DNA from: Escherichia coli | GTDB taxonomy: Bacteria > Pseudomonadota > Gammaproteobacteria > Enterobacterales > Enterobacteriaceae | DNA length: 64,000 nt | Reading direction: 5' to 3' (one strand) | Assembly (NCBI RefSeq): GCF_003334255.1 | Contig: NZ_QOWU01000001.1 | In this document: piece by piece, positions 27,594-56,730 of the stretch | Layout: the number at the start of each line of letters is the position of its first letter | Numbering within the stretch: the first letter of the stretch is position 1 | The notes under the pieces: model-generated | The model's input: the letters and a program-made list of their open reading frames with translations, nothing else | Databases searched by the model: none | What the model was told of the DNA's origin: nothing | Translations under genes and position numbers: made by a program

Positions 27594-29096
27594 ATGACGA
27601 TTTTTGATAATTATGAAGTGTGGTTTGTCATTGGCAGCCAGCATCTGTATGGCCCGGAAACCCTGCGTCAGGTCACCCAACATGCCGAGCACGTCGTTAA
27701 TGCGCTGAATACGGAAGCGAAACTGCCCTGCAAACTGGTGTTGAAACCGCTGGGCACCACGCCGGATGAAATCACCGCTATTTGCCGCGACGCGAATTAC
27801 GACGATCGTTGCGCTGGTCTGGTGGTGTGGCTGCACACCTTCTCCCCGGCCAAAATGTGGATCAACGGCCTGACCATGCTCAACAAACCGTTGCTGCAAT
27901 TCCACACCCAGTTCAACGCGGCGCTGCCGTGGGACAGTATCGATATGGACTTTATGAACCTGAACCAGACTGCACATGGCGGTCGCGAGTTCGGCTTCAT
28001 TGGCGCGCGTATGCGTCAGCAACATGCCGTGGTTACCGGTCACTGGCAGGATAAACAAGCCCATGAGCGTATCGGCTCCTGGATGCGTCAGGCGGTCTCT
28101 AAACAGGATACCCGTCATCTGAAAGTCTGCCGATTTGGCGATAACATGCGTGAAGTGGCGGTCACCGATGGCGATAAAGTTGCCGCACAGATCAAGTTCG
28201 GTTTCTCCGTCAATACCTGGGCGGTTGGCGATCTGGTGCAGGTGGTGAACTCCATCAGCGACGGCGATGTTAACGCGCTGGTCGATGAGTACGAAAGCTG
28301 CTACACCATGACGCCTGCCACACAAATCCACGGCAAAAAACGACAGAACGTGCTGGAAGCGGCGCGTATTGAGCTGGGGATGAAGCGTTTCCTGGAACAA
28401 GGTGGCTTCCACGCGTTCACCACCACCTTTGAAGATTTGCACGGTCTGAAACAGCTTCCTGGTCTGGCCGTACAGCGTCTGATGCAGCAGGGTTACGGCT
28501 TTGCGGGCGAAGGCGACTGGAAAACTGCCGCCCTGCTTCGCATCATGAAGGTGATGTCAACCGGTCTGCAGGGCGGCACCTCCTTTATGGAGGACTACAC
28601 CTATCACTTCGAGAAAGGTAATGACCTGGTGCTCGGCTCCCATATGCTGGAAGTCTGCCCGTCGATCGCCGCAGAAGAGAAACCGATCCTCGACGTTCAG
28701 CATCTCGGTATTGGTGGTAAGGACGATCCTGCCCGCCTGATCTTCAATACCCAAACCGGCCCAGCGATTGTCGCCAGCTTGATTGATCTCGGCGATCGTT
28801 ACCGTCTACTGGTTAACTGCATCGACACGGTGAAAACACCGCACTCCCTGCCGAAACTGCCGGTGGCGAATGCGCTGTGGAAAGCGCAACCGGATCTGCC
28901 AACTGCTTCCGAAGCGTGGATCCTCGCTGGTGGCGCGCACCATACCGTCTTCAGCCATGCACTGAACCTCAACGATATGCGCCAATTCGCCGAGATGCAC
29001 GACATTGAAATCACGGTGATTGATAACGACACACGCCTGCCAGCGTTTAAAGACGCGCTGCGCTGGAACGAAGTGTATTACGGGTTTCGTCGCTAA
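27594..29096 (+). CDS. araA: L-arabinose isomerase AraA
   Basis: ORF track ORF 27570..29096; canonical start [20 protein letters not shown] at 27594 (500 aa). Confidence 0.96.
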
Positions 29097-29098
29097 GT

Positions 29099-29285
29099 AG
29101 CCGCATCCGGTATGTAACGCCTGATGCGACGCTGACGCGTCTTATCTGGCCTACACGCTGCGATTTTGTAGGCCGGATAAGCAAAGCGCATCCGGCATTC
29201 AACGCCTGATGCGACGCTGGCGCGTCTTATCAGGCCTACACGCTGCGATTTTGTAGGCCGGATAAGCAAAGCGCATCCGGCACGA
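29099..29285. repeat. REP/BIME array: about 2.3 tandem copies of an 85-bp unit between araA and araD
   Basis: CGCCTGATGCGACGCTG...GTAGGCCGGATAAGCAAAGCGCATCCGGCA begins at 29118 and again at 29203 (period 85), with a partial copy at 29099-29117. Confidence 0.85.
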
Positions 29286-29295
29286 AGGAGTCAAC

Positions 29296-56644: not shown

Positions 56645-56730
56645 TGCCTGATGCGACGCTGATGCGTCTTATCAGGCCTACGGGAGCACGAATGTAGGCC
56701 GGATAAAGCGTTTACGCCGCATCCGGCAGT
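56645..56730. repeat. REP elements between caiA and caiB
   Basis: GCCTGATGCGACGCTGATGCGTCTTATCAGGCCTAC...GTAGGCCGGATAAAGCGTTTACGCCGCATCCGGCA. Confidence 0.8.

Follow-up and report, generated by a model that had tools for sequence, protein, structure and literature searches.

A two-unit BIME-2 array between araA and araD in a wild relative of Escherichia coli K-12, and the length polymorphism of this spacer across the species

Does the spacer between araA and araD carry fewer repeat units in this Escherichia coli than in K-12, and if it does, in which direction did the number change, and is the araBAD transcript likely to be affected? We addressed these questions in the window, the 64-kb stretch of DNA analysed here, starting from a preliminary description that had reported an 85-bp tandem REP array in the spacer. 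Our reading of the locus as a whole, which we hold with high confidence, is that the spacer is a BIME-2 in which the window corresponds to MG1655 minus its middle unit, likely through in-register loss, at a site that is a four-allele polymorphism and where the difference is probably near-neutral.

Architecture and predicted folding of the spacer

The genes araB, araA, araD and polB follow one another on the + strand of the window, and its araA and araD match the annotated genes of complete E. coli genomes. The start of araA was placed from the annotated length of 1503 bp (annotation in MG1655, GM4792 and G1/2). The intervening spacer is 199 bp long (araA stop ending at 29096, araD start at 29296), and nearly all of it is taken up by a single TRF array (29102-29282; period 85, 2.1 copies, 94% matches, no indels, score 327), which is by far the strongest tandem repeat within the 64-kb window and is wholly extragenic. 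The array reported in the preliminary description is therefore real, and both Z2 and Y REPs were found in it. A repeat search placed the 85-nt copies at 29102-29186 and 29187-29271 with 94% identity and five mismatches between them, at unit positions 10, 13, 14, 34 and 46. The two unit differences quoted earlier (GCTGACGCG versus GCTGGCGCG, and TCTGG versus TCAGG) are both present, alongside three more among the unit's first 14 nt. The phase proposed for the two units, 29118-29202 and 29203-29287, is acceptable as a choice of register, except that the periodicity ends at 29282 and the second unit accordingly comprises 80 of 85 nt; what had been called a partial unit can be identified as the closing arm of the last Y REP together with the degenerate remnant that follows the araA stop.

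Each 85-bp unit consists of a 36-nt Z2-type REP (GCCTGATGCGACGCTGRCGCGTCTTATCWGGCCTAC) and a 29-nt Y-type REP in the opposite orientation (Table 1). Orientation alternates along the spacer, the Z2 elements lying on the + strand and ending in CTAC, and the Y elements lying on the - strand, with GTAG first on the + strand. The linkers are short, at 13 nt tail-to-tail and 7 nt head-to-head, and leave no room for an L motif, the long IHF-binding linker of BIME-1. With consensus strings that we take to be those of the Z2 and Y types, a pattern search returned three Z2 and two Y matches in the window, as against none in 100 shuffles. An isolated Z2-type REP is located outside the array, at 56646-56681, with two mismatches to the consensus.

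Table 1 Features of the araA-araD region in window coordinates
Feature	Position	Strand	Basis or remark
araA (L-arabinose isomerase) CDS	27594..29096	+	stop TAA 29094-29096; ORF end 29096
Degenerate REP remnant (GTAGCC..GCATCCGG) and head linker	29097..29118	+	directly 3' of the araA stop
Z2-type REP no. 1 (GCCTGATGCGACGCTGACGCGTCTTATCTGGCCTAC), CTAC end 3'	29119..29154	+	pattern match, 2 mismatches
Tail-to-tail linker no. 1 (ACGCTGCGATTTT), Z2 to Y	29155..29167	+	sequence
Y-type REP no. 1, inverted (GTAGGCCGGATAAGCAAAGCGCATCCGGC on + strand)	29168..29196	+	exact - strand match to GCCGGATGCG..CTTATCCGGCCTAC
Head-to-head linker ATTCAAC, unit 1 to unit 2	29197..29203	+	sequence
Z2-type REP no. 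2	29204..29239	+	exact consensus match, 0 mismatches
Tail-to-tail linker no. 2 (ACGCTGCGATTTT)	29240..29252	+	extra middle unit of MG1655: GCGCTGCGATTTT
Y-type REP no. 2	29253..29281	+	exact pattern match; 3 nt before the araD Shine-Dalgarno
araD Shine-Dalgarno AAGGAG	29285..29290	+	5 nt upstream of ATG
araD (L-ribulose-5-phosphate 4-epimerase) CDS	29296..29991	+	ORF, 231 aa; annotated in matching genomes

Folded as RNA in the araBAD sense, the four REPs give predicted hairpins of -17.1, -14.3, -21.7 and -14.3 kcal/mol, each of which beats 200 of 200 shuffles (z-scores of -5.3 for Z2 no. 1 and -5.2 for Z2 no. 2), and the entire spacer folds at -97.7 kcal/mol (z -5.3). The remnant at 29097-29118 forms a weak hairpin (-3.8 kcal/mol, z -0.86), which does not amount to significant folding. 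A scan of the araA-araD spacer revealed no promoter-like or terminator-like sites. REP hairpins in mRNA are barriers to 3'-to-5' exonucleases and favour the upstream segment; by analogy, those on the polycistronic araBAD mRNA would shield upstream araB-araA from 3' exonucleases. Translation of an upstream gene can also be lowered when a REP lies no more than about 15 nt from its stop codon, an effect that is doubtful for araA because the first stable hairpin begins 22 nt past its stop. On DNA, again by analogy, the element would be a preferred gyrase site, gyrase cleavage sites being over-represented in BIME-2 in vivo (PMC6379681). Literature searches turned up nothing specific to ara on mRNA stability, gyrase binding or expression. 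If unit number did affect araBAD mRNA decay, the locus would provide a small natural case of expression tuning by REP copy number.

Comparison with MG1655 and the nearest strains

Alignment with the reference genome, the check that had been proposed, revealed three units in MG1655 (NC_000913.3) and not the window's two. With araD at 65855-66550 and araA at 66835-68337, the MG1655 spacer measures 284 bp, exactly 85 bp more than that of the window, which bears out the earlier statement that the K-12 spacer is about one unit longer. The two spacers are separated by one clean 85-bp gap between flanks that are 100% identical. Unit 1 of the window is identical to MG1655 U1 and unit 2 to MG1655 U3, the middle unit being the one that is missing. 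Since MG1655 U2 and U3 are distinguished by a single base (CCTACG versus CCTACA), we looked at the in-register deletions individually: all 85 that take out the G of U2 reproduce the window allele.

The most likely route to the window allele is that a K-12-like allele of three units lost one of them in register, in a wild phylogroup-A lineage otherwise near-identical to K-12 here. Such a loss may have occurred through slippage during replication, through unequal recombination between direct repeats of 85 bp that are nearly identical or, alternatively, through the REP-associated transposase TnpA_REP (RAYT), which would cleave the DNA and transfer strands; these mechanisms are indistinguishable because the breakpoints fall within identical repeats.

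The first 29 kb of the window are 99.98% identical to K-12, and positions 1-29282 differ from MG1655 by four bases and one 1-bp indel. We nevertheless rejected the possibility that the window is K-12 (MG1655 or GM4792), given approximately 45 polB SNPs (31382-32983) and a different yabP repeat. The window comes from a wild phylogroup-A relative of K-12, whose nearest genomes are G6/7, G8 and G1/2, and this result confirms a K-12-like wild strain as its source, not K-12 itself. Among RefSeq complete genomes, none matched positions 28500-38500 at 100%, the best being G6/7 and G8 at 99.8%, while G1/2, isolated from the faeces of a healthy person, shows about 10 differences from the window in 64 kb outside the yabP repeat. 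When ranked by similarity to the window over 10 kb, the approximately 25 nearest genomes all have two units, contained in a single aligned piece. The window's own 801-bp allele with two units was recovered at 100% identity from 26 complete genomes among the matches listed, originating from pigs, humans, cattle, frogs and wastewater.

Two other differences from K-12 were observed within the window. In polB, some 45 substitutions are packed into 1.6 kb, with tens of kilobases around them near-identical; this patch is common to G1/2 and looks like a short imported recombination tract. In yabP (36711-36837), a 15-bp (45-bp) tandem repeat of 8.5 copies constitutes the second variable-number repeat of the window, in a coding or pseudogene region, and its copy number differs from that of MG1655 (the window being about 30 bp longer), G1/2, G6/7 and G8.

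Length alleles in E. coli and related genera

To describe the alleles across the species, we built a query in which the 3' end of araA directly abuts the 5' end of araD, so that the spacer length could be read from the stretch covered by the match in a given record; full-spacer BLAST statistics were dropped for allele counts, as alignment pieces of the repeat were joined inconsistently. Two samples of 59 genomes each, taken at even intervals from different rankings and with two genomes in both, agreed with one another. The percentages that follow are rough, because the samples were spaced down a similarity ranking and are neither random nor a full census. A spacer of 284 bp (three units) was found in 40 of the 118 genomes (34%), 168 bp (one unit plus a BoxC-like element) in 37 (31%), 199 bp (two units) in 25 (21%) and 114 bp (one unit) in 16 (14%), and none of the 118 sampled genomes exceeded 284 bp. 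Sequences of ten representatives confirmed the unit counts of the 114-, 199- and 284-bp classes. The 168-bp allele, as seen in 2014C-4135, PV0838 and 21AH004, comprises one unit and then a G+C-tract element, GTTTTCCCCCTCGCCCCTTTGGGGAGAGGGCCGGGGTGAGGGGAAACGACC, a dispersed repeat present at a median of 12 places per genome; by comparison with PMC4666352 it looks like an element of the BoxC or potential intrastrand triplex (PIT) type, and it is absent from the window.

Across E. coli, the araA-araD locus shows a length polymorphism with four alleles. With 21% of sampled genomes carrying the 199-bp spacer, the two-unit state is a common allele and not the marker of one strain. In O157:H7, moreover, the unit variants of the two-unit allele are ordered otherwise than in the window, so that at least two unrelated two-unit haplotypes exist. 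The proposal that the array could be used as a strain marker holds in that its length differs among strains and can be sized simply by PCR; as a marker it is weak, with four common alleles, homoplasy across unrelated haplotypes including O157:H7, low resolution and possible short-read collapse.

The sequences of the units also bear on age. The bases that set unit 1 apart from the units that follow had been taken to indicate recent duplication or contraction, which overstates the case: they are common to BL21 and UPEC-type strains, and the architecture of the array is therefore old. Similarly, the CCTACG linker variant (CCTACGCGTTCCG) is found in the middle unit of the three-unit alleles of BL21(DE3), UPEC-774U and Z0117EC0054 (in the last of these, in the first unit as well), and MG1655 U2 has its G. 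Three units are likewise present in Escherichia sp. MOD1-EC7003, a separate species representative. As the linker variant is common to several strains and MOD1-EC7003 has three units, an array of three units in which the middle one is distinct appears to be old.

Among species representatives of other genera, Enterobacter, Leclercia and Lelliottia have a lone palindrome in a spacer of about 47-51 bp, and Citrobacter and Salmonella arizonae a spacer of about 95-100 bp that holds one REP pair, while representatives of Escherichia species have one to three Z2/Y units, E. albertii having one. The spacer thus lengthens stepwise by genus, from a single palindrome to one REP pair and then to one to three Z2/Y units. 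The presence of a REP-type hairpin here is old, given that it extends across genera; no tandem Z2/Y amplification was seen outside Escherichia among the loci examined. In Kluyvera ascorbata, a BoxC-like element adjoins a Y REP at the same site, echoing the 168-bp allele of E. coli.

Alternative readings and known systems

The absence of a unit from the window could in principle be an assembly artefact, the source strain having three units of which two near-identical 85-bp copies were collapsed into one. A precedent may be found in GM4792, a K-12 derivative and the sole K-12 record among the 26 exact matches listed, which has a two-unit array (NZ_CP011343.2, 66551-66749) and was assembled with ALLPATHS-LG from 100-bp Illumina reads (PMC4675052). 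Because such reads cannot span two units, a collapse is possible in GM4792, and its array therefore offers no evidence of laboratory contraction. The same record has araC annotated as a pseudogene with an internal stop. For the window, however, the identical allele recurs in 26 listed RefSeq 'complete genome' records that originate in many different laboratories and hosts, its nearest relatives all share it in a single aligned piece, and discrete 114-, 199- and 284-bp classes recur across phylogroups. With the allele common to these listed genomes and to the nearest relatives, we regard an artefact in the window as exceedingly unlikely; the locus should nonetheless be flagged as one where short-read assemblies may miscount repeat units. 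Alternatively, the two-unit array might be the ancestral state, K-12 and its close wild relatives having duplicated the second unit and then undergone one A-to-G change. A unit duplicated not long ago within the K-12 lineage would account for the single base between MG1655 U2 and U3. In the outgroup E. albertii there is just one unit, about 35% of sampled genomes have a one- or two-unit allele, and amplification models based on TnpA_REP exist (PMC3333891). The G of U2 is not private to MG1655, however, but belongs to the CCTACGCGTTCCG linker type of BL21(DE3), UPEC-774U and Z0117EC0054; MOD1-EC7003 has three units; and a fresh duplication followed by a mutation recreating the same base is less parsimonious. 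We consider this reversed polarity fairly unlikely. Parsimony favours contraction from an ancestor with three units, and the earlier term 'contracted array' is apt to that extent; such a contraction is not proven, since E. albertii has one unit and MG1655 U2 and U3 differ by one base.

Two further readings would assign the array a function of its own. The Rfam model naRNA4 (RF02564) has a marginal match at 29171..29236 (+), scoring 60.2 bits where the gathering score is 59.5 (E 9e-10) and covering Y no. 1 and Z2 no. 2, with the remaining matches sub-threshold at 31-42 bits. naRNA4 derives from the REP-pair cluster REP325, most REPs are reported to be transcribed, and REP325 RNA is reported to act with HU (PMC4550694). 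The array is transcribed within the araBAD mRNA when arabinose is present, and one could posit that it is a functional nucleoid-associated ncRNA locus and not a passive intergenic repeat. Yet the model is built from a Y/Z2 pair, such that any BIME-2 unit scores well, arabinose-dependent transcription is ill-suited to a housekeeping nucleoid role, and unit number ranges freely from one to three, with the array mostly replaced in 31% of sampled genomes. We judge an ncRNA locus very unlikely and, given the derivation of naRNA4 from REP325, attribute the match to REP-pair family resemblance instead of a separate RNA gene. Alternatively, unit number might not be neutral: hairpin count and the length of the untranslated gap would set the ratio of AraB/AraA to AraD, and hence the level of toxic L-ribulose-5-phosphate, with selection keeping four alleles across lineages. 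This appears highly improbable to us. The one-, two- and three-unit alleles begin alike after the araA stop, point differences aside, and the 114-, 199- and 284-bp alleles all meet the araD ribosome-binding site in an identical way; because both junctions are unchanged, unit number is expected to be nearly neutral, and gaining or losing one unit probably makes little difference.

Both this element and the variation in its copy number, the araA-araD locus included, are already known. In PMC3333891, BIME-2 are defined as tandem Z2+Y REPs with short linkers whose number at a locus differs among strains, and the same Z2+Y make-up is given in PMC1187871, where a passage citing Bachellier et al. 1997 reports BIME-2 length polymorphism in 51 isolates. 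The window array has Z2+Y REPs in alternating orientation, strain-variable tandem copies and an extragenic site, and a difference of two versus three units is an ordinary, documented kind of strain variation. PMC3333891 further describes how TnpA_REP cleaves and recombines oligonucleotides of the MG1655 'araD-A' BIME in vitro; oligonucleotides B315/B316 of Ton-Hoang et al. 2012 are from 'araD-A', the same locus.

The closest counterpart is the araD-araA BIME of MG1655 itself, a bacterial interspersed mosaic element of type 2 in the Gilson/Bachellier classification, which shares the Z2/Y alternation, short linkers, 85-bp units and extragenic site within the operon, and differs from the window only in unit number, three against two. 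The polycistronic malE-malF operon, with its REP mRNA stabiliser, is likewise a case of REPs between two cistrons of one transcript, and by analogy the window hairpins, at -14 to -22 kcal/mol, are predicted to block exonucleases. naRNA4/REP325 has Y/Z2 REP-pair sequence and structure in common with the window array, which lies at another locus, has two units and not six, and is transcribed in an arabinose-dependent manner, association with HU and a role in nucleoid condensation having been shown only for REP325. Finally, as in MLVA VNTR loci, the alleles are discrete, step by whole units and can be sized by PCR; in contrast to those loci, the araA-araD array has few alleles (one to three units and one replacement), and its length classes occur on unrelated haplotypes, resulting in low resolution.
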